Below, one piece after another: positions 2,393 to 64,000 of a stretch of 64,000 nt of DNA (position 1 is its first letter; each line of letters starts with the position of its first letter). A model generated the notes under the pieces. The model saw only the letters and a program-made list of their open reading frames with translations, had not been told where the DNA came from and ran no database searches. The stretch is from a phage, in the sequence record PZ452596.1. One strand, given 5' to 3'. The translations under genes were made by a program, and so were the position numbers.

Positions 2393-2608
2393 AACTTTTT
2401 AAAAATATTCGTAATAAATGTGAATACCAATCACCACTGCCGAAACTTGTGCAACCCACCACGCACAAGCAATAAGTACAGAATTAAAAATTTTCATAAT
2501 AACCTCATCACAAAAGTAAATGTTAAACAAATTAATGGAATACTAATTAACCAAACAAAACACCACCATAATGAACTCATAGTTCAATCTCAACGATTTT
2601 CATTTTAC

Positions 2609-2815
2609 TCAATAATCCGCTAAAAGATCGACGATTGCATCACGAAGACACTTATTCGCAATACGTTTAAGAGCAATTTCAGTTTCTGGAGCATTTTGAA
2701 TAATCATTGAATTCAATTCAGCCTCAGCAAACTGAAGTTCTTTAACTAATTCAGCTTTATATTTTCCTTGCCCTTTCTTAGCTTTTGCTCGTTTTAATTC
2801 AGCTGTAGTAAACAT
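2609..2815 (-). CDS. hypothetical protein, 68 aa
   Basis: ATG at 2815 preceded by GGAGAATAAA leader shared with other cassettes. Confidence 0.55.
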   Translation of the reverse strand: MFTTAELKRAKAKKGQGKYKAELVKELQFAEAELNSMIIQNAPETEIALKRIANKCLRDAIVDLLADY

Positions 2816-2849
2816 TTTATTCTCCAAATCCGTATCAGTTGATAGTTGT

Positions 2850-2879
2850 ATATTACCACAGTCCTTGTGGTATGTAAAC
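2850..2879 (-). promoter_or_regulatory. T4-type early promoter
   Basis: GTTTACataccacaaggactgtggTAATAT; CCACA/TGTGG inverted repeat in spacer. Confidence 0.5.
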
Positions 2880-2899
2880 AGTTTTGTGAAAAAATTTTT

Positions 2900-3457
2900 T
2901 TAAATGGAAAGATACCATCCATTGTAGTTGCTTTTTCTTACAACCTTACGAAGGTCTTCTCTATCACCGATGAATTTCGGAGTGTACTGGATGACACCTG
3001 GATGAATTTCTTTAGTGTTGAATATAATTATACAGTCAGCGACTTGGTGATTCAGAATGGGCCCTAGATTTATTCCAGAACCGTATGGATACTCTCCGCT
3101 GCATCCGGTTGTTACCGAAATCCATCGTGAGTCAGTTTGATGTGTTTTGACTTCTACACGAAGCCCACAGTATTTTGGATGCGCCAATACATCCCATGCA
3201 TATGTATATGGGTCATTAACATCCTCTTGGCCTTTGTTAACATACCCGCTTAGCCAATCTGCTACAAAAAATTCTGCGTACACAGCGATACGGCATCTTT
3301 CGATAACTTCTGCCTTATCCTGATTTGGGTTTTGTTTTAAAGAGTATCTTGCAGTATCAGCAATTTTGACCTTCATTTCATTGGTTAAATCGCTGTTCGA
3401 TAGAGTAAATGTCGGAATCTGAAATAGTCTCTGTAGCCCCGGATTCGTTTTCTGCAT
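2900..3457 (-). CDS. denB: endonuclease IV (DenB), 185 aa
   Basis: ATG at 3457 with AAAGGAAAG RBS; 185 aa and position between rIIB and ndd as in T4. Confidence 0.7.
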   Translation of the reverse strand: MQKTNPGLQRLFQIPTFTLSNSDLTNEMKVKIADTARYSLKQNPNQDKAEVIERCRIAVYAEFFVADWLSGYVNKGQEDVNDPYTYAWDVLAHPKYCGLRVEVKTHQTDSRWISVTTGCSGEYPYGSGINLGPILNHQVADCIIIFNTKEIHPGVIQYTPKFIGDREDLRKVVRKSNYNGWYLSI

Positions 3458-16796: not shown

Positions 16797-17399
16797 TTAT
16801 AGATTAAATCCTTCAAAATCAAGAGTATAGATAGTGTATGTTGAATACTTTTTATACTCATATCTATCTGCAATTCTAAATACACTTCCAGCTGGTATCA
16901 TTACTTCTTGTTCATCTGAAACTAATTCCATATTACGATAACGATGGCTATCCGGAAACTTAAAGTTTGGATTGTATTCTTTACAGCGTAGAGCTTTTAT
17001 AGCATACTCCTGGAAATTGAATACCATAGGAGCTTTGAATTCAAAAATAACTTGTGTGTTATACTCTAAACCGGAAGCAAAATGTAGAGCTATATTTTTA
17101 TCATATGAAGCTGATACGACTTTATCAAATGTAATAATATCAATTCCTTGATTTAATACTTGCTTAGTCTCAGCTGGAACACCTCTCCAAAGAGGTTTAT
17201 CGTTTGGAACCAAACGAGATTTGATTATTTCATTTAACCAAGAATGATCGTCTGGTTTATTAGTAATACAATGAATTAAAAGTTCAATTTCAGATAAATT
17301 AAACCCTTCAGAAAGTAATTCTTCACGAATAGAAGCACGCACCGATGCATCCATTGATTTTATTTTAAAATCTTTTAGTTGCATTACTGAGTATTTCAT
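16797..17399 (-). CDS. modA: ADP-ribosyltransferase ModA, 200 aa
   Basis: R (LWRGV), S-x-S and EQE (DEQEVMIP) motifs typical of ART toxins; 200 aa; ATGA overlap with upstream gene. Confidence 0.75.
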   Translation of the reverse strand: MKYSVMQLKDFKIKSMDASVRASIREELLSEGFNLSEIELLIHCITNKPDDHSWLNEIIKSRLVPNDKPLWRGVPAETKQVLNQGIDIITFDKVVSASYDKNIALHFASGLEYNTQVIFEFKAPMVFNFQEYAIKALRCKEYNPNFKFPDSHRYRNMELVSDEQEVMIPAGSVFRIADRYEYKKYSTYTIYTLDFEGFNL

Positions 17400-18019
17400 T
17401 CAACTACCTCAATATCATAAACTTTAAATGTTCCAAATGAATCGTGTAATTTTTCTTTTGAAATAGAAGTTATTCTATACTTTCCAATTGGAATCATCCA
17501 TTCTTGTTCACGCACAATCATCATTAAGTTGTCAGTACGCTCTGAATCTAGCCCATCAGTATCTTCATACGTGTACTTAAACTCAGTATTAGGAGAAGAA
17601 AGTATAATATCGCTGATATGGTCAGAATAATTAAAAGCTTTATCAGTTTTTAAGCGAAATATTATTTCAGTGAAATACTCAACATAAGAAAAACCACATG
17701 CTGTGTGCAAACTAGTAGTAAATGAATCTACCCTGTTCGTTGAAAACACTTCTCCAACTTGTAAATCTTTAATGAGTTCTTTTGTCGATTTTGATATACC
17801 ACGATATAACTGATAAGGTGATTTAGTTAAATGCTTTTTAATGATTTTATTCAACTGCCTATGAAGAGCTTCATTCTTTTTGGCTTCCATACATTGCCAA
17901 AGAACGGATTGTTCAAAGTCAGTAAATTTTTCACAGACTTTTTTATACATATCATATTGAAAATCAACGCTTTCAGCTTTTATAGATAACTGTTCAACAT
18001 CTTCAAGATTAATAATCAT
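17396..18019 (-). CDS. modB: ADP-ribosyltransferase ModB, 207 aa
   Basis: LYRGIS, FSTN, EQEWMIP motifs; 207 aa; ACGGAGG RBS; early promoter upstream. Confidence 0.75.
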   Translation of the reverse strand: MIINLEDVEQLSIKAESVDFQYDMYKKVCEKFTDFEQSVLWQCMEAKKNEALHRQLNKIIKKHLTKSPYQLYRGISKSTKELIKDLQVGEVFSTNRVDSFTTSLHTACGFSYVEYFTEIIFRLKTDKAFNYSDHISDIILSSPNTEFKYTYEDTDGLDSERTDNLMMIVREQEWMIPIGKYRITSISKEKLHDSFGTFKVYDIEVVE

Positions 18020-22533: not shown

Positions 22534-22579
22534 ATTAACCTCTATTCATAAAAGCATTAAAAATTTGGTCATCAATAGA
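22534..22579 (-). repeat. 46-bp direct repeat copy 1 (3' coding end plus RBS)
   Basis: attaaCctctattcataaaagcattaaaaatttggtcatcaataga; one mismatch to copy at 22892. Confidence 0.8.
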
Positions 22580-22891
22580 TGGAATAGCAACCTTTTCGGC
22601 ATCATTTAGCAAATCATTAATTTCATCAGATAGCATAACACATGTGCCTTTATTTCCTGTAATTGTTACTGCACAATTACGAACGTTTTCTTTATCAAAT
22701 TTTAGGTTAATATTTTCGTAGTGAAAATCCTTTAATGCCGAGTATATCTTTAAAATGAAATTGTCTTTTACTACAATAAACCCAACTTCACTATTAAAAC
22801 GTGGTTCATGGAAACTGTAATAAACCTTTTCATCTATGAAATCGTATGAAATTTTTTCCATTTTTAAATATGAAAATTCAGAACTATACAT
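22535..22891 (-). CDS. hypothetical protein 118 aa (61.1/61.2 region); C-terminus identical to next gene
   Basis: ATG at 22891 with AGAGATTAAT RBS; ends ...SIDDQIFNAFMNRG. Confidence 0.55.
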   Translation of the reverse strand: MYSSEFSYLKMEKISYDFIDEKVYYSFHEPRFNSEVGFIVVKDNFILKIYSALKDFHYENINLKFDKENVRNCAVTITGNKGTCVMLSDEINDLLNDAEKVAIPSIDDQIFNAFMNRG

Positions 22892-22937
22892 ATTAATCTC
22901 TATTCATAAAAGCATTAAAAATTTGGTCATCAATAGA
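22892..22937 (-). repeat. 46-bp direct repeat copy 2
   Basis: attaaTctctattcataaaagcattaaaaatttggtcatcaataga; encodes shared C-terminus SIDDQIFNAFMNR. Confidence 0.8.
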
Positions 22938-23525
22938 AATATTTACTTTAGACTGTTTTTCAGATGGCAATTCATATCCACATATTACAATTTTATGATC
23001 AATATCAAAATACACAGAAGCAATATGATTAATGATATTTTCAGTGAAGTCTAAATCAACATCAATATCTTTTTGACCACAGCCCAAAGGATAAATAATG
23101 CGAGTAATTCGATTATCTTTAACAAATATTCCACCGACATACTCTGTACTGCGTTTAAAGTCTACACGCCGACGAAATGAAAAATATTCAGGCTCTCTAT
23201 GAGCTCGGCTCATAGGACACAACGAGTAACTAGAATAAGAGATGTCAAATCCTACACCTTCAATATGAGCCAACGTGTCATGATTAAACCAATTATAATC
23301 GTACGCCAAATCCATTATATTGTAATATGTGAAAGGCACCGGATTAACATCATGTGTTGTACCTTTAAAATCTGCCCAGGCAACGATTTCGTTATCTTTA
23401 ACAATTACAAAAATTGTGCCAATAAGATATCCACGGTTATTTTCATCAGGCGTTATATTATAACATTGTGCATCAGGAAATTTACCGTATTTAAACGGTG
23501 GATTTTTGTGCATATAATAAATCAT
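22893..23525 (-). CDS. hypothetical protein 210 aa (61.2 position; possible anti-defence factor homolog)
   Basis: ATG at 23525 with AGGTGAATAAT RBS; ends ...ISIDDQIFNAFMNRD. Confidence 0.55.
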   Translation of the reverse strand: MIYYMHKNPPFKYGKFPDAQCYNITPDENNRGYLIGTIFVIVKDNEIVAWADFKGTTHDVNPVPFTYYNIMDLAYDYNWFNHDTLAHIEGVGFDISYSSYSLCPMSRAHREPEYFSFRRRVDFKRSTEYVGGIFVKDNRITRIIYPLGCGQKDIDVDLDFTENIINHIASVYFDIDHKIVICGYELPSEKQSKVNISIDDQIFNAFMNRD

Positions 23526-60075: not shown

Positions 60076-60462
60076 TTATTCGAGGGAAAGAAGATACTTA
60101 CTCTGGTAAAACATCCCAGTAATATCATCTATCGTGCTTTGAATGGCTGGAGGCATTTCTTTATAAATGCTGTTAGATTGGTCTAGTATGCGATCAATCA
60201 TTTTAATTGTGTCGGTAGGAAGTTTACTGGCATCTGGAATTGAAGGTGTGTATTTTCTACCAGAATACCCCAAATATTGCTCACCAAATTTATCAATCAA
60301 ATCTGGTAACTCGGAGAAAATAAAATCGTATGCTTTGTGTCTAGCATAACTTTTAGTTTCAAAATGTGCAGAATGAAAATAAGCTTGTGCAGCCATTAAT
60401 AAACCTAAGTATTCATCTGCCTTTGAAGGTTTTCCACTTTGTGAAAAGTCGCTGAATTTCAT
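60076..60462 (-). CDS. hypothetical protein 128 aa (rI.1 position)
   Basis: ATGA overlap with rI stop; terminator hairpin downstream. Confidence 0.6.
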
Positions 60463-60752
60463 TCAGTCTCCAATTTAATGTTCATAATTCTAGCGTATGA
60501 TTGTGCCATCTCCGCGCCTCGTTCTATACATTCAAAATCAGAAGAGCACGGGTCATTTTTATAGGTCGTTCTCATAAAACTATAGAATTGTTCAGACGAT
60601 TCTACGCTTTTATTTTCAAAAAGCATATAAACGTGCCTAATACCAGATTCCATAAATTTATCAAAATGAGGATCGACATTCGCTTCAATTGGTGGAGATA
60701 AAGCAAATGACAATCCTAGCATGGCAAATAGTGCCGTTGCTTTTAAGGCCAT
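60459..60752 (-). CDS. rI: lysis inhibition regulator RI, 97 aa
   Basis: MALKATALFAMLGLSFALSPPIEANVDPHFDKFMESGIRHVYMLFENKS... (signal-anchor plus periplasmic domain); TAGGAGG RBS. Confidence 0.85.
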   Translation of the reverse strand: MALKATALFAMLGLSFALSPPIEANVDPHFDKFMESGIRHVYMLFENKSVESSEQFYSFMRTTYKNDPCSSDFECIERGAEMAQSYARIMNIKLETE

Positions 60753-60764
60753 AAAGGCCTCCTA

Positions 60765-60977
60765 TCATTTTTGTCCTGTATTTACTTTATGCCGATGCAC
60801 GGCCTTAACTTTATCAAGGTATTTTTCAAAATTTCGCAATCTAGTATAGTCTGCCGGAGATTGGTTGAGTGATACTTCTCGACGCAAAGCTGAAATGATA
60901 TTTCCAACTTCCCTACGAATTTCATCTAATTGAAGAACAGTAAGATTGCGAAGTTGCTTTTCAGTTAATTGTAGCAT
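60765..60977 (-). CDS. hypothetical protein 70 aa (rI.-1 position)
   Basis: ATG at 60977 with AAAGGGGTATAT RBS; exact late promoter upstream. Confidence 0.6.
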
Positions 60978-61002
60978 ATATACCCCTTTAGTTAGATAAA
61001 CC

Positions 61003-61010
61003 TATTTATA
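61003..61010 (-). promoter_or_regulatory. late promoter core TATAAATA upstream of rI.-1/rI
   Basis: Exact TATAAATA on minus strand ~26 nt before the rI.-1 ATG. Confidence 0.6.
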
Positions 61011-61019
61011 ACTTTTGCA

Positions 61020-61601
61020 CTAACCGAGCTTTTTAGTTAATTCATTCCAATGTTTTCTACACAAAGAAACATAAATTTCATCGCCAATACAGATTTGATT
61101 ACCCTCTTTAACTGGTGTTCCATCTTCCATTAATCGAGCTGTCATAATCGCTTTTTTACCACAGTGACAAACTGCTTTTAGTTCAATAAGTTTATCTGCA
61201 ATCGCCAAAAGTTCTTTAGAACCTTCAAATAATTTTCCAGCGAAATCAGTCCTTAATCCATAAGCCATAACAGGAACATTATATGTATCAACAATTCGGC
61301 TCAATTGATGCACTTGTTCAGTTTTTAAAAACTGAGCTTCATCTACAAATACACAATGAATATCTTTTTGTGCTTCAGCCCATTTATAGAACTCGAAAAT
61401 ATCCATATCATCTGTAATAATATTCGCTTCCTGCTTAATTCCAATGCGAGAAACGACTTCACAGACAGAATCGCGAGTATCAATAGCAGGCTTAAGAACT
61501 AATACGCTCATTCCACGTTCTTTATAATTATGTGCAGCAGTCAAAAGAGAAGCAGATTTTCCAGCATTCATTGCTGCATAAGTAAAAATTAAACTCGCCA
61601 T
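61020..61601 (-). CDS. tk: thymidine kinase, 193 aa
   Basis: MASLIFTYAAMNAGKSASLLTAAHNYKERGMSVLVLKPAIDTRD... (P-loop); C-terminal Cys cluster. Confidence 0.9.
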   Translation of the reverse strand: MASLIFTYAAMNAGKSASLLTAAHNYKERGMSVLVLKPAIDTRDSVCEVVSRIGIKQEANIITDDMDIFEFYKWAEAQKDIHCVFVDEAQFLKTEQVHQLSRIVDTYNVPVMAYGLRTDFAGKLFEGSKELLAIADKLIELKAVCHCGKKAIMTARLMEDGTPVKEGNQICIGDEIYVSLCRKHWNELTKKLG

Positions 61602-61602
61602 C

Positions 61603-61791
61603 TTAGTCCTTAGTTAAATTTTCTAAATATGTTTCTAAATCATTTTCAGCTTTATCGATAGATTTTACTAATTCGTAATATGTTTCGGCATCTCCATAAT
61701 CAGAAGATAATTCAAAAGACAAATCCTTTTCTAAACTAATAATTTCACCAACTAAAAATAATATTTCGTTCTTTTGTTCGCGAGTAATCAT
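61603..61791 (-). CDS. small acidic helical protein 62 aa; family member
   Basis: MITREQKNEILFLVGEIISLEKDL...; ATGA overlap with upstream paralog. Confidence 0.5.
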   Translation of the reverse strand: MITREQKNEILFLVGEIISLEKDLSFELSSDYGDAETYYELVKSIDKAENDLETYLENLTKD

Positions 61792-61973
61792 AAGGAATTT
61801 ATATAATTAATAAGTTCTTGTTCTTTATTATCGAATTCTTTAGAAAGTTCTTCGTACTCGTTTGCATTAAAAGGACCGCATTCATCACAAACTTTTTCCA
61901 ATTCACTGTTTTTATCCATAACTTCGTGGATAAGAGAAAAGAGTTTGTCTTTTTGTTCTTTGCTTAGGCTCAT
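61788..61973 (-). CDS. small acidic helical protein 61 aa; family member
   Basis: MSLSKEQKDKLFSLIHEVMDKNSELEKV... Confidence 0.5.
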   Translation of the reverse strand: MSLSKEQKDKLFSLIHEVMDKNSELEKVCDECGPFNANEYEELSKEFDNKEQELINYINSL

Positions 61974-62143
61974 ATATTAATTTCCAGAAGTTTTAAAATA
62001 ATTCGCTTTTGCTTAAATATTTCAATAGTTAAATGATCAGTATCTTTTTGACCAATTCCAATGGCAAAACCTTTATTAGCAGCGAGTTCAATTAAATTAT
62101 CAAGTTCACGTAACACTTCGTACTGTAACTCATAACTATTCAT
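61970..62143 (-). CDS. hypothetical protein 57 aa
   Basis: ATG at 62143; ATGA overlaps at both ends; below ORF-track cutoff. Confidence 0.35.
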   Translation of the reverse strand: MNSYELQYEVLRELDNLIELAANKGFAIGIGQKDTDHLTIEIFKQKRIILKLLEINI

Positions 62144-62352
62144 TTCGGTTTACCTTCTTTAACGAAATCTGGATAAGGATAAAATCCCGAATAAAATCCT
62201 TCACCTTTATGATTGATGCATCCTTTATTAGAACAATAGCACCAATAATCGAAATCACAAGCCATTTCATCGTTGCATAAAGCAAAAACAACCGGCCACT
62301 TACACTTTTCGCAGTGGGCATTTTTAAGAATACTAGTTTGGCTCATAACCAT
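62140..62352 (-). CDS. Cys-rich small protein ~70 aa (probable metal-binding)
   Basis: ATG at 62352 with AAAGGTTAC RBS; HCEKCKW...CNDEMACDFDYWCYCSNKGC. Confidence 0.5.
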   Translation of the reverse strand: MVMSQTSILKNAHCEKCKWPVVFALCNDEMACDFDYWCYCSNKGCINHKGEGFYSGFYPYPDFVKEGKPK

Positions 62353-62555
62353 GTAACCTTTAAGCAATATTCTTCTACATGTTGTTTACGACCTTTCTTA
62401 TCAATAAAGGTATATTCAACGAATGTTCCAATGTAGTCTTTATCTACATCATGTGGACTATTAATTGGACATTTAGTACGGCAAATGCGTTCCCATTGAC
62501 GAATAATTACTGCCTTATTCTTTGGGTCATACGGATGTGGATAATGTATATTCAT
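62343..62555 (-). CDS. hypothetical protein ~70 aa
   Basis: ATG at 62555, ATGA overlap with macro-domain gene stop. Confidence 0.45.
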   Translation of the reverse strand: MNIHYPHPYDPKNKAVIIRQWERICRTKCPINSPHDVDKDYIGTFVEYTFIDKKGRKQHVEEYCLKVTWL

Positions 62556-63019
62556 AATAACGGTTCCCAATCAACAATCACAATTTCTAATTTAGAAGAA
62601 TATGTATCTAAAATCCCCTCAATAATATCCCAGTTCCCTTTACCTATGCCTGCACCAATCCTAGGCATATAGATTGTGGGTTTAATCAGTTTATTTTCAC
62701 CAAACTCATTTAATTCTAACATACAATTCATTAAAGCGGAATACTCAAAATTTGGCCCTGGTTGAAATTGAGTATAAAGGTTGAAGCAATACGCTTTATG
62801 AGTCCTAAAGTATTTTTCATAGACTGAGTAAGAACCGAGTTTAGTTACATCACCCCATTCAGTCTGTAATTTATCAGCTTCCAAAATTTTAGGGAAAGCT
62901 TTGGTTAATTGACCCGCTACGCCTGAACCCATAGTATGAAAACAATTGCATCCATGCGCAATATTTTTACCTTCAGCGAAAAGGGCGACAATATCGCCCT
63001 TGATATATTTTACAATCAT
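62552..63019 (-). CDS. macro-domain (ADP-ribose binding/processing) protein, 155 aa
   Basis: GDIVALFAEGKNIAHGCNCFHTMGSGVAGQL and TIYMPRIGAGIGKGNW match macro-domain signature blocks; ATGA overlap with upstream gene. Confidence 0.6.
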   Translation of the reverse strand: MIVKYIKGDIVALFAEGKNIAHGCNCFHTMGSGVAGQLTKAFPKILEADKLQTEWGDVTKLGSYSVYEKYFRTHKAYCFNLYTQFQPGPNFEYSALMNCMLELNEFGENKLIKPTIYMPRIGAGIGKGNWDIIEGILDTYSSKLEIVIVDWEPLL

Positions 63020-63363
63020 CTAGTACTCAATCCTCGATTATAAGAATCTACCAAACGGTCAACCATTGAATGACAAGCGGCTTTATCTTTCTCCTCCGCA
63101 ACTGAGCATTCTAAGGTATTCCACTTTTTAGCATATCGTTTTAATAATGTATCGTTTTTGTATCTGCTTGATTTATCTCTTTCTCCGTCTTTATATGCAT
63201 ATATTAATTTCTGTGCAAATTCAGCTTGGCATGCTTTATTTTTCCCACAATAATCTGCCGCAGTGCGGTTTACATATTCTCTAATTTCAGTATATGATGT
63301 ATCTGCTGATGCAGAAGCAGAAAATGAAATTAATCCTATACATAAAACCAAAATTTTAGTCAT
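63016..63363 (-). CDS. secreted protein 115 aa (signal peptide)
   Basis: MTKILVLCIGLISFSASASADT...; four Cys. Confidence 0.55.
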   Translation of the reverse strand: MTKILVLCIGLISFSASASADTSYTEIREYVNRTAADYCGKNKACQAEFAQKLIYAYKDGERDKSSRYKNDTLLKRYAKKWNTLECSVAEEKDKAACHSMVDRLVDSYNRGLSTR

Positions 63364-63901
63364 TTACTATTTCCAAAAGTTTATTATTTTTAAGGTAATT
63401 AGCCTTTTCTAGGACTTCAGAAGCATATTTAGAACCTGCTTTAACATTCCATCCCGAATTATAAGAGGATATTGCTTTTCTTATATCGCCCTTATGTATA
63501 TTTAACCAATAAGAAAGTTCAATGTACGCCCAGGAAGCTGAATTGGATCGTTTATTCAACATTCTTTTTATTTCAGCATCAGTCATATTATAACCAAGTT
63601 CCTTAACTCTCGCTCGCATAGTAGGCAAATAATTTTGGAACATTCCATAAGCGTGATGCTTTGGTTTAGATTTTAAATTAACTCCGCCAGAGCTTTCTTG
63701 CCATAAAATGGCTGCCATTATATGACCTAATCCGCTCTTGTGGATATTTTTATGTGTTTTATATTTTCCATCCTTAGAAAATTGTTCCCCGAATTGATAC
63801 GCGTAACGCATGTTATCGAGTTGGACATTACTGAAAGTATGCTCGGAGCTATGTGCCATCATTGAAATGGCCAATAGACCAGCGAGTAGTGCTTTTCTCA
63901 T
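63356..63901 (-). CDS. secreted lytic transglycosylase-like protein (SLT domain), 181 aa
   Basis: Signal peptide MRKALLAGLLAISMMAHS; AAILWQESSGG...HHAYGMFQNYLPTM...SYNSGWNVKAGSKYASEV resemble SLT catalytic region; GAGGTAAGC RBS. Confidence 0.6.
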   Translation of the reverse strand: MRKALLAGLLAISMMAHSSEHTFSNVQLDNMRYAYQFGEQFSKDGKYKTHKNIHKSGLGHIMAAILWQESSGGVNLKSKPKHHAYGMFQNYLPTMRARVKELGYNMTDAEIKRMLNKRSNSASWAYIELSYWLNIHKGDIRKAISSYNSGWNVKAGSKYASEVLEKANYLKNNKLLEIVND

Positions 63902-63908
63902 GCTTACC

Positions 63909-64000
63909 TCATTGAGTTTTAATTACTGCTTTAGAAGCCTTTCCTGGTAAACGACGACTGTTAATAATTGCCATCCTACATTGAAGTGACGGGTCTTTGA
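63909..64000 (-). CDS. 3' end of an unidentified gene whose start lies beyond the window end
   Basis: Frame open from window edge to TGA at 63909-63911 (...RMAIINSRRLPGKASKAVIKTQ*). Confidence 0.35.
   Translation of the reverse strand, partial: KDPSLQCRMAIINSRRLPGKASKAVIKTQ

Follow-up and report, generated by a model that had tools for sequence, protein, structure and literature searches.

The window, i.e. the whole stretch of 64,000 nucleotides of phage DNA analysed here, corresponds to Enterobacteria phage RB27 (Tequatrovirus), with megablast matches of 1.5 kb and 24 kb at 100% identity. Window coordinates equal those of the RB27 record NC_025448 plus 4713 (window 40000 being record 35287), and the window begins before the first base of the linear record as deposited, which implies that the circularly permuted genome is either permuted differently or wrapped around in the window. 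Towards its end lies, on the minus strand and opening with ATG, the 155-residue open reading frame described by the first-pass annotation, which is identified as RB27_116, the tk.4 gene of RB27, annotated as 'phosphatase; tk.4' and flanked by tk.3 and vs. The product is identical to T4 Tk.4 (NP_049723) at 155 of 155 positions, and the gene order tk-tk.4-vs is common to the window and T4, hence the protein is orthologous to the T4 tk.4 product. The genes relevant to this work are located as follows.

16800..17399, minus strand: modA (tblastn with the T4 protein, 99.5% identity)
17399..18019, minus strand: modB (tblastn with the T4 protein, 95.7% identity)
22899..23525, minus strand: homologue of T4 61.2 (AdfA), an anti-DarT factor (tblastn, 78.5% identity over 209 residues)
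62343..62555, minus strand: tk.3, downstream neighbour of tk.4 (RB27 annotation mapped to the window, sequence)
62552..63019, minus strand: tk.4 (adfM), encoding a 155-residue stand-alone macro domain (open reading frame list, RB27_116 annotation, T4 identity, Pfam, fold)
63016..63363, minus strand: vs (valyl-tRNA synthetase modifier), upstream neighbour of tk.4 (open reading frame list, sequence, RB27 annotation)

The TGA stop codon of vs overlaps the ATG of tk.4 (ATGA), and the annotated ATG of tk.3 in turn overlaps the stop codon of tk.4. Judging from these stop-start overlaps, vs, tk.4 and tk.3 are almost certainly co-transcribed, and translational coupling between vs and tk.4 is possible. 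Polar effects are conceivable in both directions, i.e. of vs insertions on tk.4 and of tk.4 insertions on vs; in the HIDEN-SEQ study (bioRxiv 10.1101/2025.11.20.689424), no T4 gene was depleted more strongly in minimal medium than vs. A promoter and terminator scan detected 14 promoter-like sites in 60400-64000 as compared to 14.8 expected from shuffled sequences, and is therefore uninformative on tk.4 expression. Terminator-like hairpins were found at 4 sites of the scanned region with 1.2 expected from shuffles, and such a hairpin (62981-63001, plus strand, 8-bp stem with 5 GC pairs and a T-rich tail) is present in antisense orientation within the 5' end of tk.4. Between tk.2 and tk.3, RB27 carries two small open reading frames on the minus strand (61970-62367), RB27_113 (57 residues) and RB27_114 (about 70 residues), which are absent from this position in T4; RB27_114 is cysteine-rich (C-E-K-C ... 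C-x-x-x-x-x-C ... C-Y-C ... C) and resembles a small zinc-ribbon protein.

T-even phages carry several anti-DarT layers, and AdfA and AdfN have been described previously (PMC11825919). Directly downstream of the 61.2 homologue, the stretch 22538-22831 (minus strand) shares 35% identity with the C-terminal half of 61.2 and is possibly a diverged partial paralogue of it.

Based on sequence and fold comparisons, we are confident that Tk.4 is a macro domain of the ALC1-like class (TARG1/DarG/SCO6735/Poa1p) rather than of the MacroD, PARG or viral Mac1 classes. The match of tk.4 orthologues to A1pp/macro already appears in a table from 2006 (PMC1524935), and Pfam PF01661 (Macro) recognises residues 22-132 with 27.7 bits (E 2.9e-6), above the gathering cut-off of 22 bits. 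The AlphaFold2 model, built on 55 homologues, displays the three-layer α/β macro fold with a mean pLDDT of 95.8 and a pTM of 0.91. Comparison to the PDB using Foldseek returned 167 matches at E <= 1e-3, headed by the TARG1, Poa1p, BT1257 and DarG macrodomains (E 8e-10 to 6e-7, probability 1.00, TM about 0.72-0.82), and among the best matches listed the natural proteins are all macrodomains, the remainder being designed hydrolases. The top PDB matches in sequence searches are again BT1257, TARG1, Poa1p, SCO6735 and DarG, with BT1257 being the best, and MacroD, Af1521 and the viral macrodomains rank below the ALC1-like members by both sequence and fold. The macro-domain assignment of the first-pass annotation is hence upheld by the profile score, the model and the fold matches. 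The motif blocks on which it was founded are in part literal, as GDIV, GSGVAGQL and IYMPRIGAGIGKGNW are all present, whereas the quoted 'NAxxC' is not, the real string being N-I-A-H-G-C-N-C. The putative active-site elements map to the following codons.

62630..62665, minus strand: second glycine-rich (diphosphate-binding) loop, P119-R-I-G-A-G-I-G-K-G-N-W130 (homologue alignment)
62768..62776, minus strand: Tyr82-Thr83-Gln84, with Gln84 at the position of the catalytic lysine (HMMER profile and MAFFT alignments)
62915..62929, minus strand: first glycine-rich ADP-ribose-binding loop, G31-S-G-V-A35 (homologue alignment, model)
62945..62947, minus strand: Asn25 of the H-G-C-N-C motif, equivalent to DarG N22, PhiKZ AdfM N23 and SCO6735 N27 (profile HMM alignment)

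In the alignment of the 55 homologues, G23, N25, G33, A35, D49, Y82, T83, Q84, P119, I121, G122 and G124 are invariant, and G128 and W130 are at least 90% conserved. Both glycine-rich loops, the absence of which the first-pass annotation had named as an argument against a macro domain, are conserved: the first comes after the strand formed by residues 19-25 in the AlphaFold2 model, and the second corresponds to PRIGCGL in TARG1 and PPLGAGNGG in DarG. Y-T-Q84 is in register with I-T-K84 of TARG1, P-T-K80 of Thermus DarG and P-T-K78 of PhiKZ gp104, as determined consistently by HMMER and MAFFT. Accordingly placed, Gln84 aligns with TARG1 K84, Taq DarG K80, PhiKZ AdfM K78 and SCO6735 Gln85, and the lysine of Mycobacterium DarG likewise falls at this position. 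Furthermore, Asp125 of TARG1 is replaced by Gly126. Asn25 and Gln84 are invariant not only in the 55 database homologues, but also in all aligned viral homologues and in 64 cellular homologues. By homology to solved structures, the two side chains are expected to be spatially adjacent in Tk.4, and we infer that they fulfil catalytic roles. Substitution of the equivalent asparagine impairs activity in SCO6735 (N27S, nearly inactive; PMC9411070) and in PhiKZ AdfM (N23A; PMC13309987), and Q85A abolishes the activity of SCO6735 (PMC9411070).

The nature of residue 84 separates Tk.4 from the DarG-type enzymes. DarG (PDB 5M31, 5M3E, 5M3I) and human TARG1 (4J5R) belong to the same fold class as Tk.4 (TM about 0.73-0.77) and share the asparagine, but their catalytic Lys80/Lys84 is Gln84 in Tk.4; thymidine-linked ADP-ribose, the target chemistry of DarG and TARG1, is proposed here also for Tk.4. 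The PADLOC (1.3e-9, 36 bits) and NCBIfam (2.5e-7) models of DarG both detect Tk.4 with weak but significant scores. However, the NCBIfam DarG equivalog NF048014, which has a cut-off of 250 bits, matches at positions 2-146 of 338 and with 30.3 bits, Tk.4 is without the DarT-binding C-terminal domain of DarG, and the adjacent genes are vs and tk.3 rather than a DarT. An identity as DarG antitoxin was therefore rejected, on the grounds of the equivalog score, the catalytic lysine and the DarT partner alike.

A similar distinction applies to PhiKZ gp104, the chimallivirus AdfM (Cell Rep 2026, PMC13309987), which like Tk.4 is a stand-alone phage macrodomain that counters DarTG2, and which removes DarT2-derived ADP-ribose from oligonucleotides in vitro and is imported into the phage nucleus. 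This protein is DarG-like, with N23 and K78, and represents a lineage different from the Gln-type Tk.4: it scores 133 bits with the PADLOC DarG model as compared to 36 for Tk.4, its PDB matches to DarG reach 1e-24, and the similarity between the two phage proteins is marginal (BLASTP, 21 bits over 23 residues). Tk.4, Adpp and PhiKZ gp104 all fall into PHROG 335, and membership of this group is thus too coarse. The name AdfM has come to cover two distinct lineages, the Lys-type PhiKZ gp104 and the Gln-type T4 Tk.4, to which it was given independently; the T4-type is lysine-less and within the class belongs with Adpp, Poa1p and SCO6735, not with DarG. The HIDEN-SEQ preprint likens T4 AdfM to Mycobacterium tuberculosis DarG, and the passages considered here do not mention the Lys-to-Gln difference.

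A precedent for the putative active site is SCO6735 from Streptomyces coelicolor (PDB 5E3B), which like Tk.4 is a stand-alone ALC1-like macrodomain of about 150 residues, and of which BT1257 (2FG1/2AFC), the top PDB sequence match of Tk.4, is a close homologue. The profile alignment pairs N27 and Q85 of SCO6735 with N25 and Q84 of Tk.4 at high posterior, placing both proteins in the Gln-type, although the overall identity is about 21% only (BLASTP, E 1e-9). SCO6735 outperforms DarG and TARG1 in releasing thymidine-linked ADP-ribose from DNA, and it protects E. coli against DarT, with its gene lying outside any DarTG operon (PMC9411070). The two proteins differ in the elements that contact DNA, as K34 of SCO6735 aligns with Ser32 and K89 is without equivalent in Tk.4, and the Tk.4 loop following Gln84 (F-Q-P-G-P-N) contains no lysine and is shorter than the DNA-clamping mobile loop of SCO6735. 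Moreover, SCO6735 is a cellular protein regulated by DNA damage, whereas Tk.4 is a phage counter-defence gene product. Net charge (Tk.4 -2, SCO6735 +6, PhiKZ AdfM -6) or pI was also considered as a proxy for DNA binding and discarded as non-discriminating, with the DNA-active PhiKZ AdfM at -6.

By sequence, the closest characterised relative is Adpp of Vibrio phage Gary (KNV71_gp137), recovered as a tblastn match of Tk.4, with 35% identity (E 2e-23) and the same H-x-C-N-C, Y-x-Q and P-x-I-G-x-G signature. Purified Adpp dephosphorylates ADPR-1''-phosphate as detected by LC-MS, an activity that enables NARP1, as a pathway, to defeat the aRES NADase (bioRxiv 10.64898/2026.01.28.702374, January 2026). 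The Gary gene is located between Adps (PRPP-synthetase-like) and Namat, while Tk.4 has no NARP1 neighbours, and the substrate of Adpp is a soluble metabolite, while the known phenotype of Tk.4 is directed against a DNA-modifying toxin.

Homologues of Tk.4 are detected by tblastn in 2847 of 50,697 phage records, across many genera and irrespective of modA and modB. Viral contigs yielded 81 macro open reading frames, 79 of which align across all key positions, and the signature including the glutamine is retained throughout the aligned viral homologues. At nine viral loci besides that of Gary, Namat is a neighbour, and the homologues at these loci match Tk.4 fully or almost fully at the key positions. 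Neighbour joining places the homologues in tk/vs context in a largely monophyletic clade, with one small second group flanked by tk and vs.1 elsewhere in the tree, and the NARP1-linked homologues are scattered. An attempted tree-based split of NARP1-linked from T4-context homologues was abandoned, since, with this scatter and with key residues that differ little or not at all, no specificity-determining position can be named. In cellular genomes, at least 516 stretches were confirmed as homologues, with the same signature and mostly as stand-alone proteins of about 150 residues. No recurrent DarT-like partner is found beside the 63 cellular homologues whose neighbours were analysed, hence a recent capture of a DarG was dismissed as the origin of Tk.4. 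The recurring cellular neighbours, as read from their sequences, instead represent local synteny in Desulfobacter-related genomes (ArgC-like, ABC transporter, M23-like peptidase), and a NADAR or a PRPP-synthetase-like gene lies beside a few of the cellular homologues.

In two Ruegeria genomes and one Bacteroidales metagenome-assembled genome (loci L103, L142 and L153, the last being that of Bacteroidales), a same-strand gene of one BLAST cluster directly precedes the Gln-type macro gene, with spacings that range from a gap of 8 bp to an overlap of 16-19 bp. In L103, where the pair is located at about 2460-3450, the preceding gene scores as a NADAR domain (PF08719, 3e-36). Such a NADAR and Gln-type macro pair may represent a two-eraser cassette for DNA ADP-ribosylated at guanine and thymine; no transferase is encoded close by.

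The function of Tk.4 in infection is indicated by recent genetics on T4. A T4 lacking adfA and adfN stays resistant to DarTG2 (PMC11825919, 2025), hence a further factor had to exist. According to the HIDEN-SEQ preprint of November 2025 (bioRxiv 10.1101/2025.11.20.689424), in which a T4 transposon library was screened on DarTG2 cells, tk.4 was the single significant gene lost on these hosts, a clean tk.4 knockout sensitised T4 to DarTG2, and the gene, reported as conditionally essential only when DarTG2 is present, was named adfM, for anti-DarT factor Macrodomain. As the RB27 and T4 proteins are identical, these findings apply directly to RB27 Tk.4, and the evidence for an anti-DarTG2 role is genetically strong, with a single preprint as its source. 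The suggestion of the first-pass annotation that the protein could reverse DarT-type defences is in agreement with these data. The preprint states that removal of ADP-ribose from DNA by the enzyme 'seems likely', and in the literature searched we found no biochemical assay of T4 Tk.4.

Based on the analyses of the active site and comparisons to the characterised relatives, we propose that Tk.4/AdfM hydrolyses the thymidine-ADP-ribose generated by DarT2 on single-stranded phage DNA, using a Gln-type, SCO6735-like site, a reading to which we assign a probability of roughly 70%. DarT2 attaches ADP-ribose to N3 of thymidine in single-stranded DNA, thereby blocking replication, and Tk.4 would protect the replicating phage genome from this host toxin-antitoxin defence. 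The ADP-ribose would most likely bind in the cleft canonical for macro domains, between the two glycine-rich loops that form it. Asn25 and Gln84 would then act as the equivalent pair in SCO6735, where the glutamine places the distal ribose and the chemistry is proposed to be performed by a water molecule, allowing hydrolysis of the C1''-N3 glycosidic bond, release of ADP-ribose and restoration of unmodified DNA. Support for the proposed mechanism is provided by SCO6735, in which the lysine-less Asn/Gln site has proven chemistry on the very product of DarT2, and the in vitro activity of PhiKZ AdfM demonstrates that the macrodomain strategy is workable for phages. Both the enzymatic activity and the DNA substrate of Tk.4 are thus deduced from relatives. 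Against this reading, the catalytic lysine of DarG and TARG1 is missing, the DNA-positioning lysines of SCO6735 are not conserved, and the relative closest in sequence, Adpp, is a phosphatase and not a DNA hydrolase.

The main alternative is that Tk.4 is primarily an ADP-ribose-1''-phosphate phosphatase of the Poa1p/Adpp type, which would clear the product of NAD+ phosphorylase toxins and defences of the RES type, with the DarTG2 phenotype being a side activity or indirect. The old annotation of Tk.4 as 'A1pp phosphatase' is compatible with this, as are the H-x-C-N-C and Y-x-Q motifs shared with the purified Gary enzyme, the scattered Namat-adjacent viral homologues with their (nearly) identical key signature, the position of yeast Poa1p among the top sequence and fold matches, and the stand-alone, DarT-free arrangement of the cellular homologues. 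However, no homologue of Adps or Namat is present within the 64-kb window, so dephosphorylation of ADPR-1''-phosphate alone would not rebuild NAD+, and the sole phenotype recorded for T4 tk.4 is directed against DarTG2, a system that modifies DNA rather than depleting NAD+. In addition, the same Asn/Gln site hydrolyses thymidine-ADP-ribose in SCO6735, hence the signature does not imply a phosphatase alone. We consider phosphatase activity unlikely to be the whole explanation, given that DarTG2 does not work by NAD depletion and that the window lacks NARP1 genes, although it is quite plausible as an additional activity of Tk.4.

A non-catalytic mode, in which Tk.4 neutralises DarT2 by binding the toxin or the ADP-ribosylated DNA product, appears still less probable. 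Precedents do exist, as the dead variants SCO6735 Q85A, DarG K80A and TARG1 K84A inhibit DarT in vitro, SCO6735 the most (PMC9411070), and AdfA and AdfB are direct DarT inhibitors (PMC13309987). Tk.4 nevertheless lacks the C-terminal domain by which DarG binds DarT, spanning 155 residues as compared to the 338 positions of the NCBIfam model, and the putative catalytic Asn/Gln pair and both ligand loops are strictly invariant across diverse phages and bacteria, which argues for conserved enzymology and not for a surface matched to one toxin. The least likely reading is that Tk.4 erases or tunes the protein ADP-ribosylation exerted by Alt, ModA and ModB of the phage itself, which the first-pass annotation had offered as an option upon noting, correctly, that the genome encodes ModA and ModB. 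T4 Alt, ModA and ModB are arginine-specific ADP-ribosyltransferases. Reversal of arginine-linked ADP-ribose is assigned to ARH1, with acidic-residue, O-acetyl, phosphate-linked and thymidine substrates assigned to macrodomains (PMC8883491), and a tuning role is for this reason not supported. SCO6735 and TARG1 do act on some protein substrates as well (PMC9411070), and tk.4 co-occurs with modA and modB in this genome; the distance is however about 45 kb, with no genomic linkage, the family spans many phage genera whether or not mod genes are present, and the conditional essentiality of tk.4 was reported with DarTG2 only.

In conclusion, hydrolysis of DarT2-derived thymidine-ADP-ribose is the reading of Tk.4 that we favour. 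The function as such is already known: the annotation of the domain dates from 2006, and an anti-DarTG2 role was reported for the identical T4 protein in 2025. The remaining value is mechanistic, as the T4-type AdfM is lysine-less and one name extends over two lineages, and as the characterised members of the family divide into DNA de-ADP-ribosylation (SCO6735) and ADPR-1''-phosphate dephosphorylation (Adpp, Poa1p). A tentative possibility is that the T4-type AdfM is a bifunctional C1''-eraser, acting through one Asn/Gln site on both DarT2-modified thymidine and the ADPR-1''-phosphate of RES-type NADases. If so, a single 155-residue protein, and with it the very large phage and bacterial family of the same invariant signature, would counter two mechanistically different classes of defence, and the NARP1-linked Adpp proteins may also guard against DarTG2. 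The substrate range of the family thus bears on the annotation of the genes in the 2847 phage records, mostly labelled 'phosphatase' or 'hypothetical', and on which defences, DarTG2 or RES-type NADases, these phages escape.
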